DNA from: an uncultured Actinomycetes bacterium
Lineage (GTDB): Bacteria > Actinomycetota > Acidimicrobiia > IMCC26256 > PALSA-555
Assembly: GCA_903899845.1 (NCBI GenBank)
Contig: CAIUKV010000251.1
Coordinates: 5,970 to 69,969, forward strand
DNA: 64,000 nucleotides
Reading direction: 5' to 3'
Both the position numbers and the translations under genes were made by a program. Shown in pieces: positions 22,517-59,941 of the stretch. Under the pieces are notes generated by a model. It ran no database searches. It was not told the origin of the DNA and saw nothing but the letters and a program-made list of their open reading frames with translations. Each line of letters begins with the position of its first letter. The stretch's first letter is position 1.

Positions 22517-22522
22517 TAGCGT
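22517..22522 (+). promoter_or_regulatory. -10-like TAGCGT, 6 nt upstream of the fbiC GTG (leaderless candidate)
   Basis: tcTAGCGTgtcgccGTG. Confidence 0.4.
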
Positions 22523-22528
22523 GTCGCC

Positions 22529-43754: not shown

Positions 43755-44429
43755 GTGTGCCAGGCTGGAGGCGTGGACGTCTACGAAGCCCTCTACACCA
43801 CCCGGGCGATGCGCCGGGTCCGGCCCGACCCGATCCCCGAGGAGGTGCAGCGCAAGATCCTCGACGCCGCGATCCGGGCCCCGAGCGGCGGCAACAGCCA
43901 GACCTGGCGCTTCCTCCTGGTGGACGACAAGGCGGTGCTCGCGCAGCTCGGGCCGATCTACCGGCGCTGCATCGCCCAGGTGTGGGAGCTCGTCTACAAG
44001 GACCGGCTCGACGCCGCGGCAGCCGCACCCGACGACCCCGACCACGCGCAGATGCTGCGGGTCCAGCGGTCGGCCCAGCACCTCGCCGACCACTTCGAGG
44101 ACTACCCGCTGATGCTGTTCAGCTTCGCCCAGGGTGACCCGACCGGCGGGTCGATCCACCCGTCGACCTGGTCGGCGATGCTCGCGGCGCGCGCCGAGGG
44201 CGTGGGCTCGGCCTGGACCGTGGCGTTCGTGTTCGAGCTGCCCGCGGTGCTCGAGATCCTGGGCGTCCCGACCGAGGAGCACTGGCAGTTCGGATCGTGC
44301 GTCACCTTCGGCTACCCGACCGGCCGCTGGGGGGTCGCCCCCCGGATCCCGGTGCACGAGGTGTCGTACCGCAACCACTGGGGCACCCCGGTGGGGTTCG
44401 AGATCCCTACCCCCCTCTGGTCGTACTGA
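43755..44429 (+). CDS. Nitroreductase-family protein
   Basis: YTTRAMRRVRPDPIPEEVQRKILDAAIRAPSGGNSQTWRFLLV. The start is uncertain (GTG 43755 or 43773). Confidence 0.8.
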   Translation: MCQAGGVDVYEALYTTRAMRRVRPDPIPEEVQRKILDAAIRAPSGGNSQTWRFLLVDDKAVLAQLGPIYRRCIAQVWELVYKDRLDAAAAAPDDPDHAQMLRVQRSAQHLADHFEDYPLMLFSFAQGDPTGGSIHPSTWSAMLAARAEGVGSAWTVAFVFELPAVLEILGVPTEEHWQFGSCVTFGYPTGRWGVAPRIPVHEVSYRNHWGTPVGFEIPTPLWSY

Positions 44430-45279
44430 GCCGGGTCGCCCGCTCGAGCAGCCGGGGCGCTCCCATCCGGGCGGTCCAGGCGGCGAAGGCGTCGGTCGGA
44501 CCGGTCCAGTGCCAGTCGTCGACGTCGCCGACCTCGGCGTCGGTGCGCAGCGTCGCCAGGGTGCGGAACAGCCGGGCCTCGTCGCGCCCGTCCGCGAGCG
44601 TGGCGGCGAGCGAGGCGGCCCCGCGCACGGTGACGTCCCAGGGCGGATCCGGGATCTCGTCGAGCGACCCGTACCGGGCCAGCACGGTGGCGGCCGACTT
44701 CGCCCCCCAGCCCCGCAGCCCGGGGAACCCGTCGGCACTGTCGCCGACCAGCGCGAGGTAGTCGGGGATGGCCGCGGGCGGAACCCCGAACTTCGCCACC
44801 ACCGCCGCCTCGTCGTAGCGGACGTCGGCCCGGCGGTCCCACTGCACCACGACCGGGTCCCGTACGCACTGCGCGAGGTCCTTGTCGGGAGTGCAGATCA
44901 GGACCCGCTGCACGCGCTCGTCGGCCACCGCGGCCGCGCAGGCCGAGGCGAGCCCGTCGTCGGCCTCGTGGTCGACCATCGCCCACACTGCGACCCCGAG
45001 GGCACGCAGCGCGTCCTCGAGCAGCGGGAACTGGGCGAACAGCACCGGGTCGATGCCCTCCCCGGTCTTGTAGCCGTCCCAGAGGTCGTTGCGGAACGAC
45101 TCCACCGTGTGGTCGGTGGCGACCCCGAGGTGGGTGGCACCCCCCTCGAGCAGGTCGAGCACCGACGCCACCACACCCCGGACCGCTCCGACGTCGACCC
45201 CGTCGGGGTCGAGGTGCTCGGGTCGGGCGAAGTAGTGCCGGAAGAGCTCGTAGGTGCCGTCGACGAGGTGGACCTGCAT
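44407..45279 (-). CDS. 5'-3' exonuclease / flap endonuclease (Pol I N-terminal-domain family)
   Basis: From the internal ATG: MQVHLVDGTYELFRHYF...TPDKDLAQCV...IPDYLALVGDSADGFPGLRGWGAKSAATVL. Confidence 0.85.
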   Translation of the reverse strand: MQVHLVDGTYELFRHYFARPEHLDPDGVDVGAVRGVVASVLDLLEGGATHLGVATDHTVESFRNDLWDGYKTGEGIDPVLFAQFPLLEDALRALGVAVWAMVDHEADDGLASACAAAVADERVQRVLICTPDKDLAQCVRDPVVVQWDRRADVRYDEAAVVAKFGVPPAAIPDYLALVGDSADGFPGLRGWGAKSAATVLARYGSLDEIPDPPWDVTVRGAASLAATLADGRDEARLFRTLATLRTDAEVGDVDDWHWTGPTDAFAAWTARMGAPRLLERATRLSTTRGG

Positions 45280-45334
45280 GGCCGAAGCCTTCCACACCGA
45301 CCCGTCGCCACTCCCGGTCGGGTGCCGGAACCCG

Positions 45335-45361
45335 GCCGGATCGGCCGGATCAGCCGGATCG
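45335..45361. repeat. 3 tandem copies of a 9-nt unit (gccggatcR)
   Basis: gccggatcg gccggatca gccggatcg. Spans the stop codon of the 45350 gene. Confidence 0.5.
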
Positions 45362-46336
45362 GTCGACGTCGACGATCGCCGGGAAGGGCGGATCGGGCTC
45401 GGCGATGTTGAAGCGGCGCCGGATCTCGGCGATCGGGAGGTGGGCCATGGCGAGATGGTCGACCGCGAGGAGGTCGACGTAGCACTGCTGACCGCGGAGC
45501 ATCGCGTCGAGCACGACCGCCATCGCACCGGGCCGGCCGAGGGTCCCGATCTTGGCCTCGAAGTCCGATGGTCCGTACGCGCCGTACTCGAAGATCGCCA
45601 TCACGCCGAGGAGATAGGCCCAGTGGGCGTCGCTCTCGTGGGCGGCCAGCAGGAACGCACCGAGCGCGATCTCCTCGTGGGCCTGCGGGCCGCACCCGGC
45701 GATGAGGTGACACATGTCGTGCCCGAGGAAGAATCCGGGAATGCCGGGCTTCTCGCCCGGGAGCGCGAAGCCCTGGTCGCGGTAGAACTCGACGTACTCC
45801 CGCCCGAGCGTGCCCCGAGGGAGGTCCCGCAGGGCCAGGATGCGTGCGACCAGCTCGGGGGACGGCTGCTCGGTGTTGCGGTACTCGTCGCGCAGGGTCG
45901 TCTCGGTCATGCGGTCGAGCGATGCGTCCCACGCCCGGTGGAGGTCGTCGGTGATCTCGAGGATCGCAGCGTCGGCCATCGCCCGGGCCTGGACCAGGCC
46001 GAGCTCGCCGTCGGCCCCACCCAGGGCGTCGACGAAGGCCTCGACCCGGGCGACCTGCTCCCCCGGCAGCGGGTGCCGACAGAGCATGAACAGCACGAGG
46101 AACATCCGCAGCCGCCGTCGCACGGTGATCGTGTCGAACCGGACGGCGACCTCCTCGGGCTCGATCGGAGCGAGCGCGTCAGGGTCGAGGTCGCGGACGC
46201 CGAACACGATCCGGGCGAGGTCGACGAGCATGGACCGCTGTTGGGCGGTGCCCCCGTCGCCGACGTCGATCGCAGCCCGGATCGCACGCAGGAGGGGAAC
46301 GGTGAGATCGTCCCGCCCGCCGAGGGTGATCGTCAC
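45350..46336 (-). CDS. Hypothetical protein with a Coq4-like HDxxH-x11-E motif
   Basis: FLGHDMCHLIAGCGPQAHEEIALGAF resembles the Coq4 zinc-ligand motif. Start chosen at GTG 46334-46336 to avoid overlapping the divergent gene. The family call is tentative. Confidence 0.5.
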   Translation of the reverse strand: MTITLGGRDDLTVPLLRAIRAAIDVGDGGTAQQRSMLVDLARIVFGVRDLDPDALAPIEPEEVAVRFDTITVRRRLRMFLVLFMLCRHPLPGEQVARVEAFVDALGGADGELGLVQARAMADAAILEITDDLHRAWDASLDRMTETTLRDEYRNTEQPSPELVARILALRDLPRGTLGREYVEFYRDQGFALPGEKPGIPGFFLGHDMCHLIAGCGPQAHEEIALGAFLLAAHESDAHWAYLLGVMAIFEYGAYGPSDFEAKIGTLGRPGAMAVVLDAMLRGQQCYVDLLAVDHLAMAHLPIAEIRRRFNIAEPDPPFPAIVDVDRSG

Positions 46337-46419
46337 GCCTCCGGACGGTAGTCCCTGCGGGACCGTAGGGTGCGGTCGGGCGCGCCCGATGCGCCCGGCC
46401 GTCGAGGACATGGGAGCCG

Positions 46420-48924
46420 ATGGTGAACGACAACGTGGCCGCAATGCTCCAGGCCCGGGCGGTCGCGGAACCCGACGGGATCGTCGTGGTCGACGAGCAC
46501 GGGCCGATCACGCTCGGGGAGCTCGACGCACTGACGGGGACCTTCGCCCGGCTGCTGACGGAACGAGTCGGAGTACGAACCCACCCGACCGCCGCCGCCG
46601 GCTCGCCGCCGTTGCCGATCGTCGTCGGGGCCGACCGCTGGTCGCTGGTGGCGCTGCTGGGGGCGGTCCGGGCCGGGATCCCGCACGCCCCGCTCCCGTC
46701 CGACCAGCCCGCCGCCCGGCTCGAGGCGCTGCTCGACCGACTGGGCCGCCCCTCCGTCGCGCTGGTGGACCCGGCCTTCCCCGGCCGGCTGCCGGACGGG
46801 GTCGAGGTGCTTCGCCCGGCGTTGGTGCCCGACGACCCCATCGCCCCGTGCGCCGTCGAGGACCCGGAAGCGGTGGCCTGTGTGCTCTTCACGTCCGGAT
46901 CGACCGGTCGGCCGAAGGGCGTGGTCTACGAGTGGCGCAACCTCGCCTGGATGGCGGCCTCGTCGCTCGGCGATCCCGGCTCCCACTGGGGCTCGGTGCT
47001 CCCGTTCCACTGGGCCGGCGGGTACTTCAACGTCGTGCGCGCGGCTGCCACCGCGACGCTGTCGATCGTCCCGCCCGGGTTGACGAACGCGGAGCGGCTC
47101 CTCGACTGGTACGACCGAGGGAGCGTCGAGATCGTGTCGATCCCCCCGAGCATGCTGGCGCAGCTCGTGGACCGCTGGCCCGAGGGCCGCCGTCTCGAGC
47201 AGGTGCGCCAGGTCCGCATCGGCGGCGAGAAGCTCGGCTGGGAGATCGTGCCCGCCGTTCGGCGGCTCGTGACGGAGCGCGCCGTCATCAACTTCTCGTA
47301 CGGCAGCACCGAGGGTGGGACCGTCGCGGTCTGCCGCATGATCATCGGACCGGACGACGAGGTCGGAGTGGGTCCGATCCCGATCGGCCGGTGGGAGGAA
47401 CCGGGGCGGGGCCGCCTCGAGCCGGTCGCCGGCGGTGACGACCTCGCCGAGATCGTGGTCACGGGCAAGATCGCCCGCGGCTACTGGGACGACCCCGAGG
47501 AGCATCGGGCGCGCTTCGGCCACGACCCCGACGGCACCCGGATCCTGCGCACCGGCGATCTCGCCCGCGTCGGTGACGACGGGCTGATCCAACTGGTCGG
47601 TCGGGCCGACGACCTGGTCAAGATCCGCGGCATCCGCGTGGAGCCCGCCGAGGTCGAACTGGCCTTCCACGCGATCCCGGGCGTCCGCGAGGCGGTGGTG
47701 CTGCCCCACGAGAGCGAGCGCGGCATCCGTCTCGTCGGGCACCTCGTGCTCGACGATCCCGACCTGTCCGCGGACGTCGTCCGGCACACCCTCTCCGAGC
47801 GTCTCCCGCCGCACCTGGTCCCCAGCCCCCTCGTGGTCCACGACGCGCTGCCGACACTGCCGAACGGCAAGGTCGACCGTCGTGCGCTGCGGAGCGCGCC
47901 GGTCGAACCGTGGCGCGCCGCGCCACCCCGCCCGCCGGCCGACGCGCTCGAGGCCGACGTCCTCGTCATGTGCGCCGAGGCGCTCGAGCTCGACGAGGTC
48001 GGCGCCGACGACGACCTCTGGGAGATCGGGTTGGACTCGCTCCGGGCGGTGGAGCTCGCCGCCGCGATCTCCGAGCTCGGCTGGGGACCGTTCGACCCCT
48101 CGCTCCCGCTGCAGCAGGTCAGCGCCGCCGCCATCGCCGAGGTGCTGCGCCGGGGTGCGGCCGACGAGGACCCCCACCGTCCGTCGGAGGTCGTCACGCT
48201 GGTGCCGGTGAGTTCGGGGGACCACACCCCGATCGTGGCGGTGCCCGGCGCCGGCGCCACCGCCTACTTCTGGCTGGCCCGGGTCCTGGGCCCGGAGCAG
48301 CCGTTCACCGTGGTCGAGGCCCACGGGCTCCACACCCCGGGCCGTCCGGACCGCAGCGTCGCGGCCGCCGCCCGCCGCACGGCGCGCCGTGTGGCGGACG
48401 TCCACGCCGACGGCCCCGTGCTGCTCGTCGGGCACTCGGCGGGCGGTGCGGTCGCCTACGAGGCCGGGCGCCTGCTCCACGCCGCGGGCCGTGACGTGCG
48501 GGTCGCGGTGCTGGACCTCGTCCCCTCGACGCTCCGTCCCGCGTCGGGGGGTCCGGTTCCGCCCGCTCCCGTCGGGGCGGCGCGCGGTCGACGGACGCGG
48601 GGCCCGGGGCGACTCCCGCACCTGCTCCGGCGCGCGGTCGACGAGGGCCGGGTCCGGTTCCGCGCCCTTCGGCCGGGACCGCCGAGTCGCAGCCTGATGC
48701 GCTTCCGTGCCTTCACGCTGATCGGCACCCGCGCGGTGCGGAGGTACCAGCCCGGCCCTGCGACCTTCCCGCTCCTCGTCGTGCACACCGAGGCCACGAC
48801 GGGCGCCGCCTGGGCGGGCGTCGCCCCCGATCTCACGGTCGCCGCCACGACCGGGAGCCACCTCTCGATGCTGCGACCGCCCCACGTCCGCCACACGGCC
48901 GACGCCCTGCGCAGCCTCGTCTGA
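46420..48924 (+). CDS. Single-module NRPS-like enzyme, adenylation-thiolation-thioesterase (A-T-TE)
   Basis: A3 LFTSGSTGRPKGV, A5 NFSYGSTEG, A7 RTGDLARV, A8 GRADDLVKIRGIRVEPAEVE, A10 PNGKVDRRAL. Carrier motif LWEIGLDSLRAVEL. TE motifs VGHSAGGAVAYE and GSHLSML. Confidence 0.87.
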   Translation: MVNDNVAAMLQARAVAEPDGIVVVDEHGPITLGELDALTGTFARLLTERVGVRTHPTAAAGSPPLPIVVGADRWSLVALLGAVRAGIPHAPLPSDQPAARLEALLDRLGRPSVALVDPAFPGRLPDGVEVLRPALVPDDPIAPCAVEDPEAVACVLFTSGSTGRPKGVVYEWRNLAWMAASSLGDPGSHWGSVLPFHWAGGYFNVVRAAATATLSIVPPGLTNAERLLDWYDRGSVEIVSIPPSMLAQLVDRWPEGRRLEQVRQVRIGGEKLGWEIVPAVRRLVTERAVINFSYGSTEGGTVAVCRMIIGPDDEVGVGPIPIGRWEEPGRGRLEPVAGGDDLAEIVVTGKIARGYWDDPEEHRARFGHDPDGTRILRTGDLARVGDDGLIQLVGRADDLVKIRGIRVEPAEVELAFHAIPGVREAVVLPHESERGIRLVGHLVLDDPDLSADVVRHTLSERLPPHLVPSPLVVHDALPTLPNGKVDRRALRSAPVEPWRAAPPRPPADALEADVLVMCAEALELDEVGADDDLWEIGLDSLRAVELAAAISELGWGPFDPSLPLQQVSAAAIAEVLRRGAADEDPHRPSEVVTLVPVSSGDHTPIVAVPGAGATAYFWLARVLGPEQPFTVVEAHGLHTPGRPDRSVAAAARRTARRVADVHADGPVLLVGHSAGGAVAYEAGRLLHAAGRDVRVAVLDLVPSTLRPASGGPVPPAPVGAARGRRTRGPGRLPHLLRRAVDEGRVRFRALRPGPPSRSLMRFRAFTLIGTRAVRRYQPGPATFPLLVVHTEATTGAAWAGVAPDLTVAATTGSHLSMLRPPHVRHTADALRSLV

Positions 48925-48962
48925 CTCGTCTGAGGGGCCACCGACGGTCGGTTCCCGCGCGA

Positions 48963-48985
48963 GCCGCCGGCGGTCGGCCGGCGGC
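48963..48985. terminator. Perfect 9-bp GC hairpin between convergent genes (bidirectional terminator candidate, no U-tract)
   Basis: gccgccggc-ggtcg-gccggcggc. Confidence 0.4.
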
Positions 48986-48990
48986 TGGGC

Positions 48991-50598
48991 TCAGGCGGGT
49001 TCGTGCTCGAGCGGGGCGCCGTCCTCGTGGGCGGGCTGGGGCTCTCCCTCCCCGCCCCGCAGGAGCAGGGTGGCCAGGAGCGTCAGCACCAGGATGGCCG
49101 CGGCTGCGACCAGGAACGTGGTGCGGAAGGCGTCGCCGTACGAGGTGATGGCGTCCGCGAGCGCCTGCTTGCCCAGGCTCGTGGTCGGCTGGGTGCCCTG
49201 ACCGGCGTAGGCGGTCACGGCGTCGATGCCGGTCCCCAGTTGGTTGGCCGGGACGCCCGCCGCCGTCAACCGCTCGACGACGCCGCCGCGGGTCAGGCGG
49301 TCGATGGCGACGGTGGAGAGCGCGAAGCCCAGGGTGTAGAAGACCTGGCCGAACATGGTCCGAGAGCTCGACACCGGCCCGAGGTACCTCGCCGGGGCCT
49401 CGCGCAGGATCAGGTTGCCGAACGGCACTGCGGCGATGACCACCCCGGCGCCCACGAGCACCATGCCCGGCGCGAACCCGACCAGCGACGTCGCACCGTT
49501 CGCGATCGCGAGGTAGACGAAGCCCGCCGCCGCGGTCACCCCGCCCACGAGGCCCGCCGTCCGGTTGCGAAGACCCCGACCCATGACCCGGCCGGTGACG
49601 ACCCCGGCGACGATGCCCGACAGGAGCAGGGGCAGCTGCCAGATCGCGGCCTTCGAGGTGGTGATGCCGTTGACGTACTGCCACAGGTTGGTGAGCTGCA
49701 GGAACGAGACCGCGGTGCCGAAGTTGTAGACGAAGCCGAAGCACAGCGCACCGAGGAACACCGGCGACCGCAGCAGCGCCACCGGGAAGAACGCCCCGGC
49801 GTACCGCCCCTCCCACACGACGAAGGCGACGAGGAGCACGACGCCCGCCACGAGCGGCACCAGGGTGCGGGGGCTGGTGAGGCTGGTCGCGAACTGGCTG
49901 AACCCGTAGAGGACGCCGACGATCCCCAGGCCGAGGACGATCTGGCCGACCACGTCGAACGAACCGCCGGTGACCCGGGGCAGGCGCGGCAGCAGCAGCG
50001 GGGTCAACACGAAGGCGACCGCGCACATCACCGGGATCAGCAGGTACGCGGTGCGCCAGTTCGCCGAGGCCAGGGTGCCGCCGACGAAGGTGAGCACGAG
50101 GGTGAAGACCATCACTGCGGCGGTGAACAGTCCCATGGCCCCGGCCAGCTTCTCGGGCTTGACCACCGACTTCATGAAGCCGAACGCGGCGCCGTAGGTG
50201 GCGCCGAGGCCGACGCCCACCACCGCCTGCCCGAGGAGGTAGACGCCGACGGCGGGCGAGGCGAGGACGATCAGGTTGCCCACCGCACCCACGACGAGGG
50301 CGACGAGCAGCAGGTTGCGGCGACCGATCCGGTCGGCGACGAGTCCCGCGGTGATCACGGTGGCCGCGATCGCCAGCGTCTGCATGCTGGCGGCGAGGGC
50401 CTGGGTGCTCCCGGCCATGTCGAGCGACTTGCTCGCTCCCACCAGCGCGGTGCTCGCGATGTTGGGGGCCGAGCCCTGGATCGCCCCGAGGAAGCCGAGG
50501 AACGGCACGGCCAGGGCCGACACCTTCATCACCTTGGCCGCCGGAGCCGACGTGCCGCCCGACGTGCCGCCCGACTGATCGCCCGACTGGCCGCTCAT
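48991..50598 (-). CDS. MFS transporter (14-TM drug:H+ antiporter-like)
   Basis: From the internal ATG: MSGQSGDQSG... Many TM helices. LVADRIGRRNLL is the MFS motif A. SD GGGAGG upstream. The remainder of the 800-aa track ORF is non-coding or overlapping. Confidence 0.85.
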   Translation of the reverse strand: MSGQSGDQSGGTSGGTSAPAAKVMKVSALAVPFLGFLGAIQGSAPNIASTALVGASKSLDMAGSTQALAASMQTLAIAATVITAGLVADRIGRRNLLLVALVVGAVGNLIVLASPAVGVYLLGQAVVGVGLGATYGAAFGFMKSVVKPEKLAGAMGLFTAAVMVFTLVLTFVGGTLASANWRTAYLLIPVMCAVAFVLTPLLLPRLPRVTGGSFDVVGQIVLGLGIVGVLYGFSQFATSLTSPRTLVPLVAGVVLLVAFVVWEGRYAGAFFPVALLRSPVFLGALCFGFVYNFGTAVSFLQLTNLWQYVNGITTSKAAIWQLPLLLSGIVAGVVTGRVMGRGLRNRTAGLVGGVTAAAGFVYLAIANGATSLVGFAPGMVLVGAGVVIAAVPFGNLILREAPARYLGPVSSSRTMFGQVFYTLGFALSTVAIDRLTRGGVVERLTAAGVPANQLGTGIDAVTAYAGQGTQPTTSLGKQALADAITSYGDAFRTTFLVAAAAILVLTLLATLLLRGGEGEPQPAHEDGAPLEHEPA

Positions 50599-50781
50599 CC
50601 TGCCCCGCCTCCCGCCCCACGACCGACCCGGTGCCGGTGTCCGTACTGTACCGAGCCCGTCCGCCACCCGTCGGCACCCGCACCGTGACCGCACCGTCAC
50701 CGGCGACGACGAGATTCCCGGGGCCGGACGACGGGCGTCACCGTCCGTCGTCGCGGTCCTGTCCCCCGTCGAGGAGCTCCG

Positions 50782-51486
50782 ATGTCGAAGCGCACCAACC
50801 GTCCCCGTTCCTTCCGTGCCCGCGTCGCGGGCACCGTGATCGTCGTCGTCGGCCTGCTGACCGTGGTCGGCGCCGGCACCTTCGCCACCTTCAACGCCCG
50901 CACCACCAACCCCGACAACCTGTTCGCGACCGGGAGCCTGGTGCTCGGCAACACCAAGACGTCCGGCGCCACCTGCCTCTCGACCGCCGGCGGCACCACC
51001 GACGCGAACGTCAACGACGCCTGTGACCAGCTGTTCGACCTGACGGTGCGCAAGCCGGGCGACTCGGCCACCGCCCGCCTGTCGGTGGCCAACGTCGGAT
51101 CGGTCGCCGCCTCGGCGCTGCGGGTCTTCAGTGCCCGCTGCGACGACGCCGACGTCGCCGCGGAGACCTACCACGGCACGGGGAGCCCCTGCGGACAGGT
51201 GCAGCTCGTGATCCAGCGCTACAGCGACGCCACCTTCGCCACGCCCGTGGAGTGCGTGTACGGCGGCGGCACCGCCACCACCTGCGACTTCAGCGACACG
51301 ACCAAGACGCTGGCCGCGTTCCGGGCCGTCCACGCCGACGCCGCGTCGGGTCGGACCGTCGGCACCGGCCTCGCCGCCGGCGCCACCCGGCACCTCGAAG
51401 TCCGGCTCCTCCTGCCGGTCACGGCCGACAACTCGCTCCAGGGTCGCCAGGCGACCGTGGACCTGACCTGGTACGCCGAGCAGTAG
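50782..51486 (+). CDS. TasA/camelysin-like secreted protein with a SipW-type signal peptide
   Basis: ...VVGAGTFATFNARTTNPDNLFATGSLVL parallels B. subtilis TasA GGGTWAAFND.......FASGTLDL. SD GAGGAG upstream. Confidence 0.75.
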   Translation: MSKRTNRPRSFRARVAGTVIVVVGLLTVVGAGTFATFNARTTNPDNLFATGSLVLGNTKTSGATCLSTAGGTTDANVNDACDQLFDLTVRKPGDSATARLSVANVGSVAASALRVFSARCDDADVAAETYHGTGSPCGQVQLVIQRYSDATFATPVECVYGGGTATTCDFSDTTKTLAAFRAVHADAASGRTVGTGLAAGATRHLEVRLLLPVTADNSLQGRQATVDLTWYAEQ

Positions 51487-52073
51487 TGCCGTCGGCGTCC
51501 ACCGCCGACGCCGGTCGGGGTCGACGGATCCGGTGGGCCCGCCGGATCCGCGACCTCGGCGGCGCCGCGCTCCTCCTGGTCCTCCTCGTCGGCTTCGTGC
51601 TCGTGACGGCGGGTCCCCGGGTGCTGCCGTACCAGGTGCGCTACGTGCGCTCGGGCAGCATGGCGCCCGCGGTGCCGGTCGGCGCGCTGGCGGTGTACGT
51701 CCCGACCCGGGCGGCCGACCTCGTGCCCGGTGACGTGATCGCGTTCGTTCCCCCCGGTCGGTCCACCGAGGTCGTCGCCCACCGGATCGTCGACGTCGAG
51801 GCCACGCCGGACGGGCGCGCGTTCGTCACCCGGGGCGACGCCAACGCCCGGCCCGACACCTGGCGGGTGCCCGCCCGTGGGACCGGATGGCGCCAGACGC
51901 TGGCGCTGCCCTACCTGGGCTACGCGCTGGCCGCCCTCGTGCGGCCCGTCGTCCGCCTCGGCCTGCTGGGGGCCCTCACCGTCGCGGTCGCGGCCGCGCT
52001 CCTCGTCCGGCTGTGGCGACCCGGACGCCGGCCCGTTCCGGACCGGCCCGGGGCACCGGGGACGCACGGGTGA
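51486..52073 (+). CDS. Signal peptidase I, archaeal/ER (SipW) type
   Basis: GTG 51486 overlaps the TAG of the upstream gene. TM helix. Motifs RSGSMAP, VVAHRIV, TRGDAN. C-terminal TM helix. Confidence 0.8.
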   Translation: MPSASTADAGRGRRIRWARRIRDLGGAALLLVLLVGFVLVTAGPRVLPYQVRYVRSGSMAPAVPVGALAVYVPTRAADLVPGDVIAFVPPGRSTEVVAHRIVDVEATPDGRAFVTRGDANARPDTWRVPARGTGWRQTLALPYLGYALAALVRPVVRLGLLGALTVAVAAALLVRLWRPGRRPVPDRPGAPGTHG

Positions 52074-52969
52074 GACCAGCCGGCCGGGGCCGGGCGGTCG
52101 CGACGGCCATGGCCGGCGTCGCCCTGCTCGCCCTCGTGGCCGCATCACCCCGGGGGGTCCAGGGCCGGTTCCACGCCCAGGTGTCGGCGATCGACACCGT
52201 GCTCGCACTCGACGCGCTCGAGCCCGTGGGCGCGCTCGCTGCCGAACCCAGGGGCACGGGCGTGGCTCTCTCGTGGACCGCCGGCCGCGCCGGGGCCACC
52301 CACCGTGTCTCGGTCGGTGCGGCCGACGCCTGGGGTGGGTGCGCCGGCACCGGGTTCACGACGGTGGGGGTCACCGACGCGACCGCGTCGACCGATCCAC
52401 AGCCGCCCGGCCCGGCGGGCGCCCGGGTCTGCTACCGGGTGGAGACCGTCGACGGGCCGTGGTCCAGCGTCACGGGGAACCCGACCGTGGCCGTGCAGGT
52501 CGGGTTCGTCGTCGCCGCGGTCGGGGTCGCCAACGGCGGCACCGCGGGCCGCCTCGACGTCGGCGACCGGATCGTGGTCTCGTTCAACCAGCCCGTCGAT
52601 CGCGCGTCGGGACCGGTCGCCACCGACACCGTCTGCACCACGGCGACCCTCGTCGTGCTCGCCGCCACCCGCACCGCGGGCACCTGCGCGGCGGGCGAGG
52701 CGAGCCGACTCGGACGGCTCGAGGGCGGGACGGTCGGCGCCACCACGCGGTGGACGGCGACCTACGCGTGGTCCGACGGGGACCGGGTCCTCACCGTCAC
52801 GCTCACCAACCGGGTCGGCGGGCCGAACTCCGCGTTCACGGGGGGTGCGTGGTCGTTCCGGCCGAGCGCCGCCGCCGATGGTCCGCGCGCCGCCACCGGC
52901 GGGGTGCCGGTCTGCACCGCCGGCGCGGTCCCGGGTCCGTGTCTCCCGGAGGCGACCGGCGCGTTCTAG
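52070..52969 (+). CDS. Secreted hypothetical protein (FN3-like region), third gene of the SipW cluster
   Basis: GTG 52070 (GTGA overlap). Hydrophobic N-terminus AMAGVALLALVAASPRGVQGRFHAQVSA. GVALSWTAG...YRVETVDGPWSS resembles FN3. Confidence 0.55.
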   Translation: MRPAGRGRAVATAMAGVALLALVAASPRGVQGRFHAQVSAIDTVLALDALEPVGALAAEPRGTGVALSWTAGRAGATHRVSVGAADAWGGCAGTGFTTVGVTDATASTDPQPPGPAGARVCYRVETVDGPWSSVTGNPTVAVQVGFVVAAVGVANGGTAGRLDVGDRIVVSFNQPVDRASGPVATDTVCTTATLVVLAATRTAGTCAAGEASRLGRLEGGTVGATTRWTATYAWSDGDRVLTVTLTNRVGGPNSAFTGGAWSFRPSAAADGPRAATGGVPVCTAGAVPGPCLPEATGAF

Positions 52970-53032
52970 GCGGGTCGTGCACCCGGATCGTCCACCCGGG
53001 CGTGGACCGGGTGCCCGGGATCGGGCGGTAGC

Positions 53033-53836
53033 GTGCGGTCCCGGATGGCCGTCCTCGTCACCCTCCTCGCGGTCGTGCTCGGACTCGTGGTCGTGCTCGT
53101 CGCCGGGCTCTTGCGCAGCCACGCCGAGATCCTGCGCGCCCTGCACGACCTCGGCGTCGACCTCGACCCCGCCGCGGCGCCGACGTCGGCCCCCATCCGG
53201 TCGATCCCGCTCACCGCGGGTCCCCCCCGCACCGCCACCGACGTCAGCGGCACCACGCCCACGGGCGACGCGCTGCACCTGACCGTCACGCCGGCGGCGC
53301 ACCCGACCCTGCTGGCCTTCCTGACCAGCGGCTGCACGTCGTGCCTGGAGTTCTGGCACGCCTTCGCCGCCGGCGGCCCCGACCTCCCCGGCGACACGCG
53401 CCTCGTCGTGGTCACCAAGGGTCCGGAGGCCGAGAGTGTGGCCGCCCTGCGCAGTCTCGCCCCCGCCGGGCTCCCCGTCGTGATGTCGACCGCGGCCTGG
53501 GAGGCCTACGACGCGCCGGTGGCCCCGTTCTTCGTCCTGGTCGACGGTCGCACCGGGACGGTGGTCGGCGAGGGCGCGGCCTCCACCTGGCCCCAGGTCG
53601 TGTCGCTGATGACCCAGGCCATGGCCGACGCCGGGATCGCCGAGCCCGCCGCCGGCGGGCTCGAGGGGCCGCGGCGCCGGCGGGCCCCGGGCCGGCCCCG
53701 GGCCGACGCCGACCGCGAGGCCCAGGTCGACCGCGACCTCATGGCGGCGGGCATCCTGCCCGGCGACCCCCGCCTCTACGTGCTCCCCGACGCCCCCGAC
53801 GCCGACCCCGGCCCGACCGCCGGCCCGACTCCGTGA
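53033..53836 (+). CDS. MauD-like membrane-anchored thioredoxin-fold protein (CTSC motif) with a disordered tail
   Basis: N-terminal TM helix AVLVTLLAVVLGLVVVLVAGLL. PTLLAFLTSGCTSCLEFW. Confidence 0.65.
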   Translation: MRSRMAVLVTLLAVVLGLVVVLVAGLLRSHAEILRALHDLGVDLDPAAAPTSAPIRSIPLTAGPPRTATDVSGTTPTGDALHLTVTPAAHPTLLAFLTSGCTSCLEFWHAFAAGGPDLPGDTRLVVVTKGPEAESVAALRSLAPAGLPVVMSTAAWEAYDAPVAPFFVLVDGRTGTVVGEGAASTWPQVVSLMTQAMADAGIAEPAAGGLEGPRRRRAPGRPRADADREAQVDRDLMAAGILPGDPRLYVLPDAPDADPGPTAGPTP

Positions 53837-54765
53837 CCCTCGTCGCCGCCCACGGCTTCACGGTCGAGGCACCGGCGGGCTGGGAGGTCCGCATCTTCCG
53901 GCGCCCCGCGGCCGACGAGGTCGCCGCGTCCCCCGCCGACGGGCCGCCCGCGCCCCGGGGGGAGACGACCCACCCCGTCGTGCACTGCTCCACCGTGGCG
54001 ATGCCCGCCGACATCGGGGACTTCGGGAGCTCGGGTGTCGACCGCCTCGGCCCCGACGACGCCTTCGTGGTCGTGTTCGACTACGGCCCCGAATCGGTGG
54101 GCCAGCCGCTGTTCGCGAACAAGGGGATGCCCCGCACGCTCGAGCCCTCCGACTTCGACCCCAACATGCTGCAGCGGACCGTGCTCGGCCAGGCCGGGTA
54201 CCAGGCGTTCTTCACCGAGGCCGGCCGGGCCTGCTGCCTCTACGTCGTGATCGGCTCGTACGCGAATCGGCGCCGGGTCGCCCCGCGGGTCAACGAGCTC
54301 CTGGCCGGCTTGACGATCGCACCCCCCGAAAACGCGGGCGTCGCCGCCCCGGTCCCACCGCCCACCGTGCTCGAGGCGCTCGAGGCCGACCCCGACCACA
54401 CGCGCTTCACCCGCCTGATCGTCACGAGCGGTCTCGCGGCGCGCTGCGCCGGACCGGGACCCCTGTCGGTCTTCGCCCCCACCGACACCGCGCTCGCCCG
54501 GATCCCCGACCTCCCGGCGATCGAGGCCGACCGGTCCCGGGCCGGGCGCGTGGTCCAGGCCCACCTCGTCGCGGCGGAGATCGACCTCGGCGCCCTCACC
54601 CCGGCGACGCCGCGCACCGTCACCACCCTCGACGGCACCGACGCGGCACTGACCAGCGACGGGACGACGCTGCGCCTCGGTGCGATCCCGGTCGACCCCC
54701 TGCGCATCGTGGCGGGCAACGGCAGCGTGTTCCCGATCGACGGCCTCCGGGACCCGGTGTCGTGA
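53833..54765 (+). CDS. Protein with a C-terminal fasciclin (FAS1) domain and an N-terminal domain of unknown function
   Basis: GTG 53833 (GTGA overlap). TVLEALEADPDHTRFTRLIVTSGLA...LSVFAPTDTALARIP...VVQAHLV. No obvious signal peptide. Confidence 0.62.
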   Translation: MTLVAAHGFTVEAPAGWEVRIFRRPAADEVAASPADGPPAPRGETTHPVVHCSTVAMPADIGDFGSSGVDRLGPDDAFVVVFDYGPESVGQPLFANKGMPRTLEPSDFDPNMLQRTVLGQAGYQAFFTEAGRACCLYVVIGSYANRRRVAPRVNELLAGLTIAPPENAGVAAPVPPPTVLEALEADPDHTRFTRLIVTSGLAARCAGPGPLSVFAPTDTALARIPDLPAIEADRSRAGRVVQAHLVAAEIDLGALTPATPRTVTTLDGTDAALTSDGTTLRLGAIPVDPLRIVAGNGSVFPIDGLRDPVS

Positions 54766-55283
54766 GCGTCTGGGCGGGCCCCTTCGCCCTCGCCGCGGTG
54801 CTGCTCGTGGTCGCGGGCGCGGCCAAGGCGGTCTCGCCGACCGCCACCGCCGGCGCGCTGCGCGCGCTCGGGCTCCCCGGGCGCCCGGTGTCGGTGCGGA
54901 TCGGTGGTGCCGCCGAGGCCCTGCTCGGCGCGGCGGCGCTCGCGACCGGATGGGCCCCGTTCGTGCTCCTGGTCGGAGCGTCGTACCTGGGGTTCGCGGG
55001 CTTCGTGCTCGGCGCCCGGCGGGCCGGCGTCCCGGTCGCCTCGTGCGGGTGCCTGGGCCGCGTCGACACCCCGCCCCACGCCGTGCACGTGGTCGGCAAC
55101 CTGCTGTGCGTCGGGGCCGCGCTCGGGGCGGCCCTGACCGGGAGCCCCCCGATCGGGTCGGTCCTCGCCGACCAGCCGCTGGGCGGTGTGCCCTTCGTGG
55201 TGCTCCTCGGGGTCGGGGTGGGTGCCGCGACCCTGGCCATGGCCGCCCTCCCTCGGGCCCTGACGGCGGCGAGGCCCCGGTGA
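54762..55283 (+). CDS. MauE/DoxX-family redox-associated membrane protein
   Basis: GTG 54762 (GTGA overlap). 4 TM helices. The SCGCLG motif resembles the CGCFG of the MauE family. Confidence 0.7.
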   Translation: MSVWAGPFALAAVLLVVAGAAKAVSPTATAGALRALGLPGRPVSVRIGGAAEALLGAAALATGWAPFVLLVGASYLGFAGFVLGARRAGVPVASCGCLGRVDTPPHAVHVVGNLLCVGAALGAALTGSPPIGSVLADQPLGGVPFVVLLGVGVGAATLAMAALPRALTAARPR

Positions 55284-56293
55284 GCGGCATCGAGCCCGGA
55301 TCCGACGCCGGGCCCGACGATGCGGCCCCCGGGACGCGTCCCGAGTCACTGCGCCCGAGCCGGTCCGTGGCCTGGGCCGACTGGCTGGTCCGGCGCACCG
55401 GCTCCTTCCTCGAGTCCCGATCGAGCCGTCGGGGCTTCCTCGTGGGCTCCGCCGTCACCGGATCGGCCCTGGCCGTCGCCGGGGTCCGGTTCGCCACCCG
55501 GCCGGGCAGCGCCTACGCCGCGATCACCGACTGCGAGCCCGCCGCGCTGTGCCGCGACGGCTACACGGAGTTCTGCTGCGTCATCAACAACGGTCGCAAC
55601 ACCTGCCCGGAAGGCGCGTTCGCCGGAGGCTGGTGGCGGGCCGACTACTCCGTCTACTGCAACGGCACCCGCTACTACATCGACTGCCACGAGGCCTGCT
55701 GCGGCCCCCACCGCGGCACGGGCTTCTGCCAGGGCTGCATCGCCTGCCAGTGTGCCAACGGCGACTGCGGCAACCGCAAGGTCTACTGCAGCTACTTCCG
55801 GTACGGGCAGTGCTACCAGGAGATCGCGCGCGTCGGCCCGATCGCCTGTCGGGTCGTGACCTGTGTACCGCCCTACCTGACCGATCCGGGCTGCTCGCCG
55901 GTGGCCGCCGTCGACAACGCCACCGCCGACCACGTCACCGGGTGCCTGCTCACGCCCCCGCCGCCCCCGCCGGCTCCGCCCCCCGCGCGGATCCGCCGAA
56001 AGGACCGCACCGTGATCCAAGTCATGCTCTACGGGACGATCAGCGTCTTCTACGTCGCCGACGACGGCGCGCTCGTCCAGAAGGCCTACTCCCCCGGCCC
56101 GACCGCCGACGCCAACGGGTGGATCACCGTCCGCCTGACTCCCGCCGGTCGGTGCAAGGTCGGGGGGACCGTCGACGCCCAGGAGGGGTTCATGGGCAAC
56201 TTCCACCTGTTCGCCCAGCACTCCGACGGCGCCCGCCTCGTCCACATGACCTGGATCTACAGCCAGCGGCGCTGGGTCGAGCAGACCCACTGA
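55280..56293 (+). CDS. TAT-signal, cysteine-rich methylamine-dehydrogenase-light-chain-like protein fused to a C-terminal domain of unknown function
   Basis: GTG 55280 (GTGA overlap). SRRGFLVGSAVTGSALAVAG is a twin-arginine signal. CEPAALCRDGYTEFCCVINNGRNTCPEGAFAGGWWRADYSVYCNGTRYYIDCHEACCG parallels MauA C..W.HC...G..C.C.GG....CPPG......W...C.......Y....DCCG. 20 Cys in about 140 aa. PPPPPPAPPP linker. Confidence 0.6.
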   Translation: MSGIEPGSDAGPDDAAPGTRPESLRPSRSVAWADWLVRRTGSFLESRSSRRGFLVGSAVTGSALAVAGVRFATRPGSAYAAITDCEPAALCRDGYTEFCCVINNGRNTCPEGAFAGGWWRADYSVYCNGTRYYIDCHEACCGPHRGTGFCQGCIACQCANGDCGNRKVYCSYFRYGQCYQEIARVGPIACRVVTCVPPYLTDPGCSPVAAVDNATADHVTGCLLTPPPPPPAPPPARIRRKDRTVIQVMLYGTISVFYVADDGALVQKAYSPGPTADANGWITVRLTPAGRCKVGGTVDAQEGFMGNFHLFAQHSDGARLVHMTWIYSQRRWVEQTH

Positions 56294-56307
56294 CCCCGGA
56301 GGCTCCT

Positions 56308-57108
56308 GTGACCGTCCTGCTGCTCCTCGGCGCCGTCGTCGCCGTCTGCGCCGCCGTCCGCTCCACGTGGTCGCCGTGCGGCCAGTCGATGCTCTCCTCG
56401 ATCACGCCGCTGTCCGAACGGTCCCGGGGGCACCGCTTCGGCGTCACCGCCGCCTGGTTCGTGACCGGGTCGACGCTCGGCGGGGCGACCCTCGGCCTGG
56501 GCCTCGCCGCGGTCGCCGCCGCGGTCGCGCGCCTCGGTCCGGTCCCGGTGGGCGCCGCCCTCGCGGTGGCGGCGATCGCCGCCGCGGTGGCTGCGGCGTC
56601 GGACGGACGCGTCTTCGGCCGTTCCCTGCCCTTCCACTGCCGCCAGGTCAACGAGCTCTGGCTGAACCGCTACCGCCGCTGGGTCTACGCGGCGGGCTTC
56701 GGCTGGCAGATCGGGACCGGGTTCGCAACCTTCGTCCTGACGGCCGGGGTCTACCTGCTCGTGGTCCTCGCCGCGCTCACCGCCGACCCGCGGGCGGCGT
56801 TCGCCCTCGGGGTGGGCTTCGGCGTCGTGAGGGGGCTGGGGATCCTGCCCGCCCGCCGCATCACGTCGCCGGTCGCGCTCGCCGCGTTCCACCGTCGGTT
56901 CGACGCGTGGGGACCGGTGACCCGGGTGGCGATGACTGGGGTGGAGTGTGGCGTCGCCGTCGTGGCCGCGGCGGCCGCCCTCGGCGCACCCGGCGCGGTG
57001 CTCGCCGGCATCGGCGCAACCGCCGCCCTCGTGACGGGGCTCACCGTCCGCCGGAAGCACGCGGCCCGACCGCAGGGCACCCCGACGGTCGCCGCGACGG
57101 CGCGGTAG
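56308..57108 (+). CDS. Polytopic membrane protein with a CcdA/DsbD-like WSPC motif
   Basis: GTG 56308, 5 nt after GGAGG. TWSPCGQSML in TM1 and a second Cys in LPFHCRQ. About 6 hydrophobic segments. Confidence 0.5.
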   Translation: MTVLLLLGAVVAVCAAVRSTWSPCGQSMLSSITPLSERSRGHRFGVTAAWFVTGSTLGGATLGLGLAAVAAAVARLGPVPVGAALAVAAIAAAVAAASDGRVFGRSLPFHCRQVNELWLNRYRRWVYAAGFGWQIGTGFATFVLTAGVYLLVVLAALTADPRAAFALGVGFGVVRGLGILPARRITSPVALAAFHRRFDAWGPVTRVAMTGVECGVAVVAAAAALGAPGAVLAGIGATAALVTGLTVRRKHAARPQGTPTVAATAR

Positions 57109-57113
57109 CTCGC

Positions 57114-57989
57114 ATGGCGGAGACCGCGGTCCTGCGCAGTGGGTTGCACTTCGGTGAGGCCCCCCGGTGGCACGACGGCCGTCTGTGGTACTCCGACTTC
57201 TACGACCACGCCGTGCACGCCTGCACGCTCGACGGCGACGACGAGCGGCTGGTCGAGGTTCCCGGGCAGCCCTCGGGGCTCGGGTGGCTCCCCGACGGGA
57301 GCCTGGTCGTCTCGTCGATGACCGACCGCACCGTGATGCGCCACGACGGCGTCGCCCTGACCGTTCACGCCGACCTGTCGGCGTACGCCGGCTGGTGGGT
57401 CAACGACCTCGTCGTCGACGGCCGGGGGCGCGCCTGGGTGGGGAACTTCGGCTTCGACCTCGACGCCTTCCTCGCCGAGCACGGCGTCGATGGCATTCTC
57501 GGGGACCCCGGACCTCCGGCCACCGTGCTGTGCCGCGTCGATCCCGACGGCACCGTCACCGTCGCGGCCGAGGACATGGTGTTCCCCAACGGATCGGTCG
57601 TGACCCCCGACGGGCGGACGCTCGTCGTCGCCGAGACCCTCGCGCTGCGGGTCTCGGCGTTCACCGTCGCCGACGACGGCACGCTCACGGACCGGCGGGT
57701 CTGGGCCGACCTGGCCCACCGCCTGGTCGCCCCTGACGGCATCTGCCTCGATGCCGAGGGTGCGATCTGGGTCGCCAACGCCATGGGGCACGAGTGCCTC
57801 CGGGTGGCCGAGGGCGGCGCCGTCCTGGAGACCGTCACCACGAGCCAGCCCGCCTTCGCCTGCGCGCTGGGTGGCCCCGAGGGCCGCCACCTGTTCGTGA
57901 TGACGGCACCCGACCCGACGCCCGACGCCCGCCGGCGGGCCTCCGAGGCCCGTATCGAGGTGGCCGGGGTCGACGTCCCGGGCGCGTGA
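57114..57989 (+). CDS. SMP-30/gluconolactonase/LRE-family protein
   Basis: From the internal ATG: LHFGEAPRWHDGRLWYSDF...NDLVVDGRGRAWVGN...FPNGSVVTPDGRTLVVAET...PDGICLDAEGAIWVA. Confidence 0.8.
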   Translation: MAETAVLRSGLHFGEAPRWHDGRLWYSDFYDHAVHACTLDGDDERLVEVPGQPSGLGWLPDGSLVVSSMTDRTVMRHDGVALTVHADLSAYAGWWVNDLVVDGRGRAWVGNFGFDLDAFLAEHGVDGILGDPGPPATVLCRVDPDGTVTVAAEDMVFPNGSVVTPDGRTLVVAETLALRVSAFTVADDGTLTDRRVWADLAHRLVAPDGICLDAEGAIWVANAMGHECLRVAEGGAVLETVTTSQPAFACALGGPEGRHLFVMTAPDPTPDARRRASEARIEVAGVDVPGA

Positions 57990-58001
57990 ACGCCGCCGGG
58001 A

Positions 58002-58904
58002 TCAGACCGCGCCGGCGCGGACCGCGAGGGTGAGCGTGGCGGTGAGCCCCGAGCCCGTGGCCCCGGACATCACGGCCATCTGCTGGGCGATCCCGTCCCG
58101 GAAGACGTTGTCGCGCGCCGCGGGGGTCTGCGGGAAGTTGCGGAGGCTGGTCTCGTAGCCCGGTTGCGCGTACACCGCGGCGCAGGTGTCCTCGGGGAAG
58201 GCCAGCTGTGACGTGCAGAGCTTCGGACCGCCACCGGCGGCCGCGGCCTGGCTCGGGTACACCTCGAAGTGCACGTGGGGGTACCGACCCGGGTACGCGC
58301 CCGGGAACACCGTCGTGAACCCCACCGTGCCGTCGGCGTCGGTGACCTGCACCCCGCGGCACCAGTTCTGGTCGGTGGCGCCCGGCGAGTACAGCGAGTA
58401 CCGACCGTCGGCGTCGCAGTGCCACGCGTAGACGGCGATGCCGCGACGCGGTGTGCACCCGGCGTCGAGGTCGAGCACCCGCAGGCGCACCGCGAGCGGG
58501 CTCCCGGCCGCGGTGCCCCGGAGGCCCCCGAACGACTCGCGCAGGTCGACGCGGACCACGCCCTCCTGGTTCAAGACGTTGGGACCGTTGCTGCCGTCGG
58601 CCGGGAAGGGCCCGGCGGTCTCGGTGGGGAACGGCGCACAGTCGGCCGGGGAGATCGGCGTCGTGGCCGCCGTGGTGGCGGCTGCGGTCGTCGGGGTGGT
58701 CCCGGCCGGACCGGGGACGCGCGCACCCCGCGCCCCGGGGCCGTCGCTCCCGCCACATCCCGCGAGGGTCAGCAGGCCGACGCCGCCGAGACCCCCGAGG
58801 AGGCCGAGCACGCGTCGTCGGGACGGGGCGTCGGGTGGAACGGGTGGACCGGGTGGATCGGGTGGACCGGAGGCGGCGTGACCGTCGGGCACAGGCGTCG
58901 TCAT
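58002..58904 (-). CDS. Secreted (TAT/lipoprotein-like signal) intradiol ring-cleavage dioxygenase-family protein
   Basis: SRRRVLGLLGGLGGVGLLTLAGCGG. ...AVYAWHCDADGRYS...GAYPGRYPHVHFEV. Confidence 0.75.
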   Translation of the reverse strand: MTTPVPDGHAASGPPDPPGPPVPPDAPSRRRVLGLLGGLGGVGLLTLAGCGGSDGPGARGARVPGPAGTTPTTAAATTAATTPISPADCAPFPTETAGPFPADGSNGPNVLNQEGVVRVDLRESFGGLRGTAAGSPLAVRLRVLDLDAGCTPRRGIAVYAWHCDADGRYSLYSPGATDQNWCRGVQVTDADGTVGFTTVFPGAYPGRYPHVHFEVYPSQAAAAGGGPKLCTSQLAFPEDTCAAVYAQPGYETSLRNFPQTPAARDNVFRDGIAQQMAVMSGATGSGLTATLTLAVRAGAV

Positions 58905-58960
58905 GGCGTCATCATCGCCCGTCGCCCGACCCGGGCCGGGCCCCGCACCTGTGAGGCCGC

Positions 58961-59884: not shown

Positions 59885-59941
59885 GCGGAGGCGGCGCACC
59901 CCGAGAGCGTATGCGGCGCCCCGTGGGTTACCGTCACCGGC

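Follow-up and report, generated by a model that had tools for sequence, protein, structure and literature searches.

A three-gene locus probably encoding a TasA-type extracellular fibre in an uncultured high-GC actinobacterium

The window considered here is a 64,000-nucleotide (nt) stretch of contig CAIUKV010000251.1 from an uncultured actinobacterium. Its forward strand carries, at 50782-52969, three genes that we refer to as P1, P2 and P3 (Table 1). They are packed without gaps and translationally coupled: the GTG start codon of P2 (51486) overlaps the TAG stop codon of P1 (51484-51486) by one base, and the GTG start codon of P3 (52070) lies within a GTGA overlap with the stop codon of P2. 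Their frames have a third-position G+C content (GC3) of 0.93-0.96, as against 0.71-0.83 in the overlapping alternative open reading frames (ORFs), a contrast which implies that the three frames are real and that the long antisense ORFs are shadows. For P3, gene callers picked an alternative start, ATG at 52109, on identical metagenome contigs, which gives a product of 286 residues; we prefer the GTG at 52070, because it alone yields the arginine-rich n-region found in P3 homologues. A first-pass annotation of the bare sequence had described the products as a TasA/camelysin-like protein, a SipW-type signal peptidase and a third secreted protein. Its genes, coordinates and overlaps were confirmed on the forward strand, and the motifs that it quoted were found (GAGTFATFNARTTNPDNLFATGSLVL in P1; SGSMAP, AHRIV and GDAN in P2).

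What kind of protein is P1? Against Pfam PF12389 (Peptidase_M73/camelysin) it passes marginally, with 22.7 bits at a cutoff of 22.5 and over residues 13-56 only; the same model matches 32 of 36 diverse P1 relatives (best E 5e-8). TIGR04088, the model for SipW-dependent-type signals, gives 17.3 bits on P1, below its cutoff of 19, and matches 18 of these relatives. The TasA equivalog model NF046066 finds a weak match in 30 of them, and its score on P1 itself, 17.5 bits, falls so far under the cutoff of 450 that P1 is ruled out as an orthologue of Bacillus subtilis TasA and is instead a distant relative. When the P1 family was aligned with TasA by hhalign (the TasA query being identical to 8AUR chain A over residues 28-261), a probability of 95.6% was obtained, with E 1.1e-8 and 33% identity. 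The alignment pairs P1 residues 11-110 with TasA 3-80, spans the signal peptide, the donor strand and the KPGD..NxGSL strand, and sets GAGTFA/TFNA of P1 in register with GGGTWA/AFND of TasA (the slash marks the cleavage site, which is a predicted one in P1). Searched against all PDB sequences, a P1-family profile returned TasA alone (5OF1 and 8AUR), with a weak E of ~0.4 and with matches falling on KPGD..NxGSL and on the C-terminal NxYQG..F.F..Q strand; the single P1 sequence gave a chance match to BamA only. In an AlphaFold2 model of P1 with a mean predicted local distance difference test score (pLDDT) of 70, residues 85-234 are confident, and a Foldseek search of the PDB with this model placed the TasA fibre, 8aur_A, first (E 1.6e-7, probability 1.00). 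Other donor-strand filaments, namely AbpA (7UEG), the Sulfolobus thread subunit (7PNB) and CfaB, stand lower in the same list. Judged by its sequence and predicted fold, P1 is thus a divergent member of the TasA/camelysin superfamily, nearer to the TIGR04088/TasA type, and on this point the first-pass annotation holds.

The same annotation had also pointed to actinobacterial 'alternate signal' proteins and to searches with TIGR04088 and TIGR04089. Proteins of the TIGR04089 'alternate-type signal peptide' group (the Rhodococcus RER_14450 family) are actinobacterial, exported and catalogued as substrates of SipW-like peptidases. TIGR04089 found no match in P1 or P3 at E <= 1 and matched four of the 36 P1 relatives weakly (E 0.03 or worse), so that P1 is ruled out as a protein of this kind; of the two suggested models, the one that P1 approaches is TIGR04088.

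Residues 32-55 are the most conserved stretch of the P1 family (alignment A1), with A35, F37, N43, N46, G51 and L55 invariant and A39, P44, F48, T52, L53 and V54 nearly so. Cleavage is predicted within this stretch at TFA/TF, after A35; mature TasA starts at A28 (PMC10151520). The residues behind the predicted cut, 36-55, have low confidence in the monomer model and are the putative equivalent of the TasA donor strand, which comprises residues 28-38 and makes hydrophobic contacts through F29, I32 and F39 (PMC9674648). Roske et al. reported that the protomer interface of camelysins is likewise most conserved (PMC10151520). Six cysteines (C65, C81, C120, C137, C158 and C168) are invariant in the P1 family, and P1 itself carries a 21-residue insertion between C65 and C81.

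Homologues of P1 number 248 at E <= 1e-3 in a metagenome protein collection. Nearly all of them are unnamed and a few are labelled Actinomycetota or Acidimicrobiales, the closest named ones stemming from metagenome-assembled genomes (MAGs) of those groups. Six homologues of ~226-236 residues (P0010, P0011, P0054, P0089, P0094 and P0115) bear the Joint Genome Institute (JGI) product name 'predicted ribosomally synthesized peptide with SipW-like signal peptide'. For this family the name misleads; P1 of the window is predicted to be a TasA-like beta-sandwich.

The second product, P2, scores 72.9 bits against TIGR02228 (cutoff 51.85) and 17.7 bits, below the cutoff of 22.9, against Pfam Peptidase_S26. 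Its 55.6 bits against the SipW equivalog model NF046067 (cutoff 190) rule out orthology with B. subtilis SipW, and P2 is therefore SipW-like in type only. Among solved structures, human SEC11C and SEC11A come nearest (E 7e-5), and SGSM (S58), AHR (H99) and GDANARPD (D118, D124) of P2 stand in register with SGSMEP, HR and GDNN..DD of the SEC11 proteins. In an alignment of P2 with 40 homologues from the related loci described below, S58 and D124 are conserved in 41/41 sequences and H99 and D118 in 40/41, and hydrophobic segments occupy both ends of P2. On these grounds we classify P2 as an endoplasmic reticulum (ER)/archaeal-type (S26B, SipW-like) signal peptidase I of the Ser/His rather than the Ser/Lys type, which looks functional from its sequence. 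The ER/archaeal-type assignment made at first reading is borne out, and the catalytic serine and histidine on which it hinged are retained.

P3 matched no family in Pfam or NCBIfam, and TIGR04088, TIGR04089 and other NCBIfam models gave no meaningful match on the P3 family. A P3-family profile nevertheless collects 183 representatives at E <= 1e-30 and 354 at E <= 1e-10 among 1.84 billion clusters at 50% identity, most of them ~300 residues long and matched over their full length. The AlphaFold2 model of P3 (pLDDT 86, predicted TM-score 0.78) has two beta-sandwich domains, and its best Foldseek matches in the PDB are tandem FN3 structures (E ~2e-4), which upholds the FN3-like region recognised in the first-pass annotation. 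Its strands run to residues 294-297 with pLDDT above 90, the terminal Phe being part of the last strand. Six cysteines are conserved in the family, together with a C-terminal CxPxxTGxF-COOH (also in alignments A2 and A3). In Chloroflexia (loci L002-L005) the P3 homologues measure 554-587 residues as maximal ORFs and have an extra Ala/Thr/Ser-rich C-terminal half beyond the CxP..F end, which suggests a variable functional extension.

What ties P3 to P1 is the N-terminus. In P3 homologues the signal peptide is followed by TFAxFxAETxNxxSxFA (family consensus), which is the P1 motif, and hhalign of the two families gives a probability of 90.9% and E 1.2e-6, confined to P1 29-54 and P3 26-51. The P3 of the window retains Phe at +2, Ala at +4 and the hydrophobic spacing; its cleavage is predicted after G32, and residues 29-51 have low confidence in the model. 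Against TasA itself the P3 family gives a non-significant hhalign match (E 0.015, probability 3%), though in the expected register. P3 had been said to recall TapA of B. subtilis, and this claim stands in part. As a homologue of TapA it is ruled out on sequence: hhalign of the P3 family with TapA (the query verified against 6QAY) gives a probability of 0.07%. The TapA entries 6QAY, 6HQC and 8AIF are not in the best 50 of 1765 Foldseek matches of P3; both proteins are Ig-like, so a remote relationship is conceivable from the models. The part that survives is an analogy, based on the shared N-terminal motif in a protein encoded beside the peptidase. The N-terminus of TapA resembles the TasA donor strand, and it is through strand complementation that TapA acts as nucleator of the TasA fibre (PMC9674648; PMC10151520). 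The mature N-terminus of TapA reads AFHDIETFD in the 6QAY-verified sequence. Since a P3 family with the N-terminal motif of P1 parallels this likeness between TapA and TasA, the comparison with TapA becomes stronger.

Is the three-gene arrangement peculiar to this genome? A scan of one genome per GTDB species yielded 56 related loci, all in MAGs, from Actinomycetota, Acidimicrobiia, Gaiellales, Chloroflexia and Dormibacterota; the closest representative genome stands at 58% identity. A P2 homologue lies directly 3' of the P1 homologue in 42/56 loci. In 38 loci the contig extends far enough to judge what comes next, and in 26 of these it is a P3 homologue detectable by BLAST. From the other 12, 11 were inspected, and eight of these have another ORF behind P2 with the same N-terminal motif. 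The P1-P2-P3 order is thus conserved across phyla. The flanking genes have no counterparts in the related loci: tblastn with the major facilitator superfamily (MFS) transporter and the CxxC protein (53033) matched none of them, and when the ORFs of window positions 44001-60000 were clustered with those of the loci, no window gene outside the module grouped with them, the flanking genes covered being the stand-alone gene resembling a non-ribosomal peptide synthetase (NRPS-like A-T-TE), the fasciclin gene, the MauE-like gene and the gene for a Cys-rich protein with a twin-arginine translocation (Tat) signal. A functional link between the module and its flanks is accordingly rejected, and the unit is P1-P2-P3. 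A six-frame regular-expression search of the window for the SipW-type motif found P1 as its single match and no further peptidase substrate.

Many Gaiellales loci, for example L018-L020, L022, L024-L027, L036 and L051, have two to four P1 paralogues 5' of the peptidase, longer or partial ones among them, and in 19 loci the P3 homologue is followed by the gene of a membrane protein that matches dCache_3 weakly; the arrangement is suggestive of major and minor subunits with an associated sensor. P1-P2-P3 also occurs in two loci (L040 and L042) of a MAG named 'Nitrosotalea sp.' (SMAG_U13922), at 68-70% G+C. We have set aside an archaeal occurrence of the module and a transfer to archaea, as a G+C content of ~69% is far from the value to be expected of Nitrosotalea and fits bacterial contigs that were probably misbinned.

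How might the three proteins act together? We consider it likely that they constitute an operon whose products build a TasA-type extracellular fibre through donor-strand exchange; the grouping of the three products into one secretion or fibre module, proposed at first reading, is supported by the sequence, profile and fold tests. We envision a scenario whereby P1 and P3, each synthesised with a SipW-type signal peptide, are exported, presumably via Sec, and cut by membrane-bound P2 (Ser58/His99/Asp) after ..GAGTFA35 in P1 and ..GVQG32 in P3, which would expose N-termini starting x-F-x-A. The freed strand of P1, residues 36-55, would then enter the beta-sandwich of the next P1 subunit and so build the fibre, as in B. 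subtilis TasA; we infer this polymerisation from the conservation of the strand. In P3 such a strand would be borne by a tandem FN3 body that is complete in itself and has no TasA-like acceptor domain. Because such a protein could donate but not accept a strand, it would be found at one end of the fibre only, where it would complement an empty groove and might serve as nucleator or terminal subunit, the role of TapA, and perhaps also as an adhesin. P1 and P3 have six invariant cysteines each, which would probably form three disulfides per protein and stabilise the structure outside the cell; in P1, sequence proximity alone would pair C65 with C81, C120 with C137 and C158 with C168. What the comparisons show are the homologies of P1 and P2, the catalytic residues, the N-terminal motif common to P1 and P3 and the retained gene order; the cleavage sites, the polymerisation, the function of P3 and the disulfides are inferred.

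Several observations weigh against this scenario. The P1 scores with Pfam and TIGR04088 are borderline and come mostly from the N-terminal 50 residues, and TIGR04088 matches no member of the P3 family. The P1 model is poor at residues 17-84, with pLDDT below 50, and its TM-score to 8AUR is just 0.45, a low value that results from the bad modelling of this region. The motif copy in the P3 of the window is degenerate, with ~5 identities over 19 positions when aligned by eye, and the P3 family has no detectable homology to TapA. P3 has no visible cell-wall anchor in its sequence (LPXTG, S-layer homology domain or C-terminal membrane helix), which leaves attachment of the fibre unexplained, and no fibre, cleavage product or phenotype is on record for any member of the P1 subfamily.

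The main rival, which we regard as unlikely, does without a fibre. P1 and P3 might be exported proteins that do not polymerise, for example monomeric envelope or matrix proteins, and the N-terminal motif that they share could be a mere recognition and cleavage determinant for P2, the whole representing a private secretion route. NCBIfam indeed names the motif (TIGR04088) a 'SipW-dependent-type signal peptide', and half of the P1 relatives match under that name; P3 is predicted as a complete FN3 tandem that folds without a partner, and no polymer has been seen for the P1 subfamily. Type I signal peptidases, however, read mainly positions -3 and -1, and the conserved motif runs ~20 residues past the predicted P1 cleavage site, to L55, far beyond what recognition needs. 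Monomeric TasA is admittedly stable and soluble, another of its own strands filling the groove, but the conserved stretch of P1 aligns residue by residue with the experimentally defined donor strand of TasA (PMC9674648), and the best structural match of P1 is TasA in its fibre form.

Less probable still is a variant in which the fibre is built, P1 polymerises by itself and P3 sits either at the distal tip as an adhesin or next to the cell as an anchor, its FN3 domains binding a substrate or the envelope. Adhesins and carbohydrate-binding surface proteins often contain FN3-type domains, P3 finds its best structural matches in tandem FN3 modules, and the large extra half of the Chloroflexia homologues suggests a variable functional end. 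Precedents exist as well: no chaperone is needed for the polymerisation of archaeal cannulae and AbpX (PMC12518558), and Wang et al. proposed a combined role as initiator and adhesin for AbpB (PMC9245690). Yet the Pfam and NCBIfam scans found no binding motif or anchor signal in P3, and nothing in the present data separates adhesion or anchoring from nucleation, two roles that can coexist.

That P1 is a secreted metalloprotease or the precursor of a ribosomally synthesised peptide, as the Pfam name 'camelysin metallo-endopeptidase (M73)' and the JGI product name would have it, is hardly credible, because P1 lacks both HExxH and HxxEH, so that the metalloprotease name does not apply, its His131 lies outside the conserved columns of the family alignment, structurally characterised family members such as TasA are fibre subunits (PMC9674648), and a confidently predicted beta-sandwich core (~85-234) in a mature protein of ~200 residues is no short precursor.

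If the fibre scenario is true, what does it add? Among the protein scaffolds of Gram-positive biofilms, TasA fibres serve as the model, and to our knowledge mechanistic work on them has so far been confined to Bacillus and a few archaea. The locus suggests the same assembly logic in abundant, mostly uncultured high-GC lineages, among them Acidimicrobiia-like actinobacteria, Gaiellales and Chloroflexia, with the differences that the subunits are Cys-rich and that the accessory protein is unrelated in sequence to TapA and still carries the same mimic of the donor strand. It would thereby offer a natural test of which parts of TasA/TapA/SipW are essential (strand and peptidase) and which are replaceable (the accessory body), and a compact three-gene cassette for the heterologous reconstitution of a potentially disulfide-stabilised fibre. 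The P3 family, previously unnamed and comprising at least 183 clusters at 50% identity (E <= 1e-30), gains a plausible function as a fibre accessory.

The module is conceptually anticipated by the Bacillus and archaeal systems. Surveys have reported PF12389/TasA homologues in Actinobacteriota and Chloroflexota (PMC9245690; bioRxiv 10.64898/2026.01.04.697558) and have placed Actinomycetota sequences in the central TasA cluster (bioRxiv 10.64898/2026.01.04.697558), and signal peptidase genes beside TasA-like genes are a recognised theme (PMC12518558). When we searched the literature for actinobacterial TasA-like systems studied by experiment, distribution surveys were all that we found. New are a P1 subfamily with six cysteines, an accessory family of FN3 tandems with the N-terminal strand of the subunit, and the conserved order of subunit, peptidase and accessory. 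A broader proposal, towards which we lean with slightly more doubt than confidence, is that these loci represent a disulfide-stabilised branch of TasA-type fibres widespread in uncultured soil and freshwater Actinomycetota, Chloroflexia and Dormibacterota, primed or capped by an FN3-tandem family that reached the TapA solution, a copy of the donor strand of the subunit, independently. Under this proposal, monoderm bacteria would make fibres by a general and modular scheme of subunit, private S26B peptidase and strand-mimicking accessory, in which the body of the accessory can be exchanged.

The surroundings of the module are in keeping with an actinobacterial chromosome. The G+C content is ~75% throughout the window. 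The Pup-proteasome system is characteristic of Actinobacteria, and the genes for two Pup-ligase family proteins and an Mpa/ARC ATPase (Table 1) show, along with the affiliation of the closest named P1 homologues, that the actinobacterial context assumed in the first-pass annotation is sound. The exact P1 protein recurs, its neighbouring genes unchanged, on metagenome contigs ERZ1426724, ERZ1426820, ERZ18644595 and ERR4195044. Between P1 and the divergent MFS gene, which adjoins the NRPS-like gene, an inverted repeat sits 30 nt 5' of the P1 start; tentatively, it could be an operator or a hairpin of the 5' untranslated region. The only close contigs (L057 and L058) are identical to the window and hence uninformative for an upstream comparison. 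The leader (50620-50790) and the spacer between P3 and the next gene, P4 (52960-53040), fold into RNA structures no more stable than shuffled sequence (z-scores -0.3 and -0.5). No sigma-70 promoter or intrinsic terminator was found in a scan of 50400-53300, and an Rfam scan of the whole window found no riboswitch or other RNA family and thus no cyclic di-GMP riboswitch 5' of the module. Downstream, the run of forward-strand genes at 53033-57108 may serve the maturation of a Cys-rich secreted protein; none of its genes stands beside the TasA-like module in other genomes. The FbiC-like gene and the formate-dehydrogenase-like pair look like ordinary chromosomal housekeeping.

Table 1. Positions of the three-gene module, of segments of its products and of other features in the window
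Feature	Position	Strand	Remarks
P1 gene	50782-51486	+	234-aa precursor; ATG start; GC3 0.957
P2 gene	51486-52073	+	195 aa; GTG start; GC3 0.929
P3 gene	52070-52969	+	299 aa; GTG start; GC3 0.927
P1 signal peptide, residues 1-35	50782-50886	+	n-region MSKRTNRPRSFRAR, h-region VAGTVIVVVGLLTVVGAG
P1 residues 36-55, putative N-terminal donor strand	50887-50946	+	TFNARTTNPDNLFATGSLVL; aligns with TasA 28-46, AFNDIKSKDATFASGTLDL
P3 residues 29-51, predicted cleavage site and donor-strand-like segment	52154-52222	+	GVQG/RFHAQVSAIDTVLALDALE
P3 domain 1, ~residues 55-145	52232-52504	+	FN3-like beta-sandwich (predicted); LSWTAG, invariant W69, C91/C121; pLDDT above 88
P3 domain 2, ~residues 148-299	52511-52966	+	beta-sandwich (predicted); D166, F172-N-Q174, C189, C282, C291
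Shine-Dalgarno-like GAGGAG	50771-50776	+	5 nt 5' of P1 ATG; read from sequence
Inverted repeat GACGACGGGCG-tcac-CGTCCGTCGTC	50727-50752		repeat search; 11-nt arms, 91% complementary
Pup-ligase family proteins (Dop/PafA type), two	1323-2882, 4895-6703	-	
Mpa/ARC proteasomal ATPase	6429-8342	-	
FbiC-like fused radical-SAM protein	22520-24904	+	CofH_C domain, F420 biosynthesis type
Molybdopterin oxidoreductase, then NuoF-like flavoprotein	38730-42034	+	formate-dehydrogenase-like pair
NRPS-like stand-alone gene	46420-48924	+	adenylation, peptidyl carrier protein (PCP) and thioesterase; without condensation domain
MFS transporter, divergent	48991-50619	-	
Membrane protein	53033-53836	+	TSGCTSC (CxxC) motif
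Fasciclin-domain protein	~53839-54765	+	
MauE-like protein	54762-55283	+	
Cys-rich protein, ~337 aa	~55286-56293	+	Tat-like SRRGFLVGS signal; no Pfam match
Polytopic membrane protein	~56311-57108	+	no Pfam match

How does the module compare with known systems? The closest parallel is tapA-sipW-tasA of B. subtilis, where a single operon likewise combines a TasA-superfamily subunit, a dedicated ER/archaeal-type peptidase and a secreted accessory with an N-terminus that mimics the one of the subunit, where the peptidase gene overlaps its neighbours, and where the cleavage context of the subunit corresponds to that of P1. TasA and P1 have the KPGD..NxGSL and NxxQG..F/W motifs in common. The gene order differs, being subunit-peptidase-accessory here and accessory-peptidase-subunit in Bacillus, and the host is a high-GC uncultured actinobacterium. 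P1 and TasA are ~15% identical in the structural alignment, the 33% given above applying to the 78 aligned N-terminal columns; unlike TasA, P1 lacks a long C-terminal tail and has the C65-C81 insertion as well as six invariant cysteines, of which the TasA sequence used has none. P3 differs from TapA in its tandem FN3-like build.

More distant relatives are found among archaea, in which the AbpA/AbpB bundling pili of Pyrobaculum, AbpX of Pyrodictium and the haloarchaeal Tafi are donor-strand filaments of jelly-roll subunits. There the subunit gene often adjoins a signal peptidase I gene or TasA-like paralogues, and AbpB, a multi-domain beta-sandwich accessory, is the proposed source of the first strand (PMC9245690; PMC12518558). 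In sequence these filaments are much farther from P1 than is bacterial TasA. AbpA uses the general signal peptidase, and the Tafi use the Tat pathway; AbpX/CanX polymerise in a calcium-driven, chaperone-free manner and have an acidic isoelectric point (pI) near 4, that of mature P1 being 5.0.

The chaperone-usher pili (Fim/Pap) have no evolutionary relationship to the module and differ from it in that the latter has neither a periplasmic chaperone nor an outer-membrane usher, assembly taking place outside a monoderm-type envelope. What they share with the proposed fibre is the joining of Ig-like subunits by N-terminal donor strands. In these pili a subunit that is able to donate but not to accept a strand is fixed at one end of the fibre, as the terminator PapH is, and the same logic matches the role that we envision for P3.

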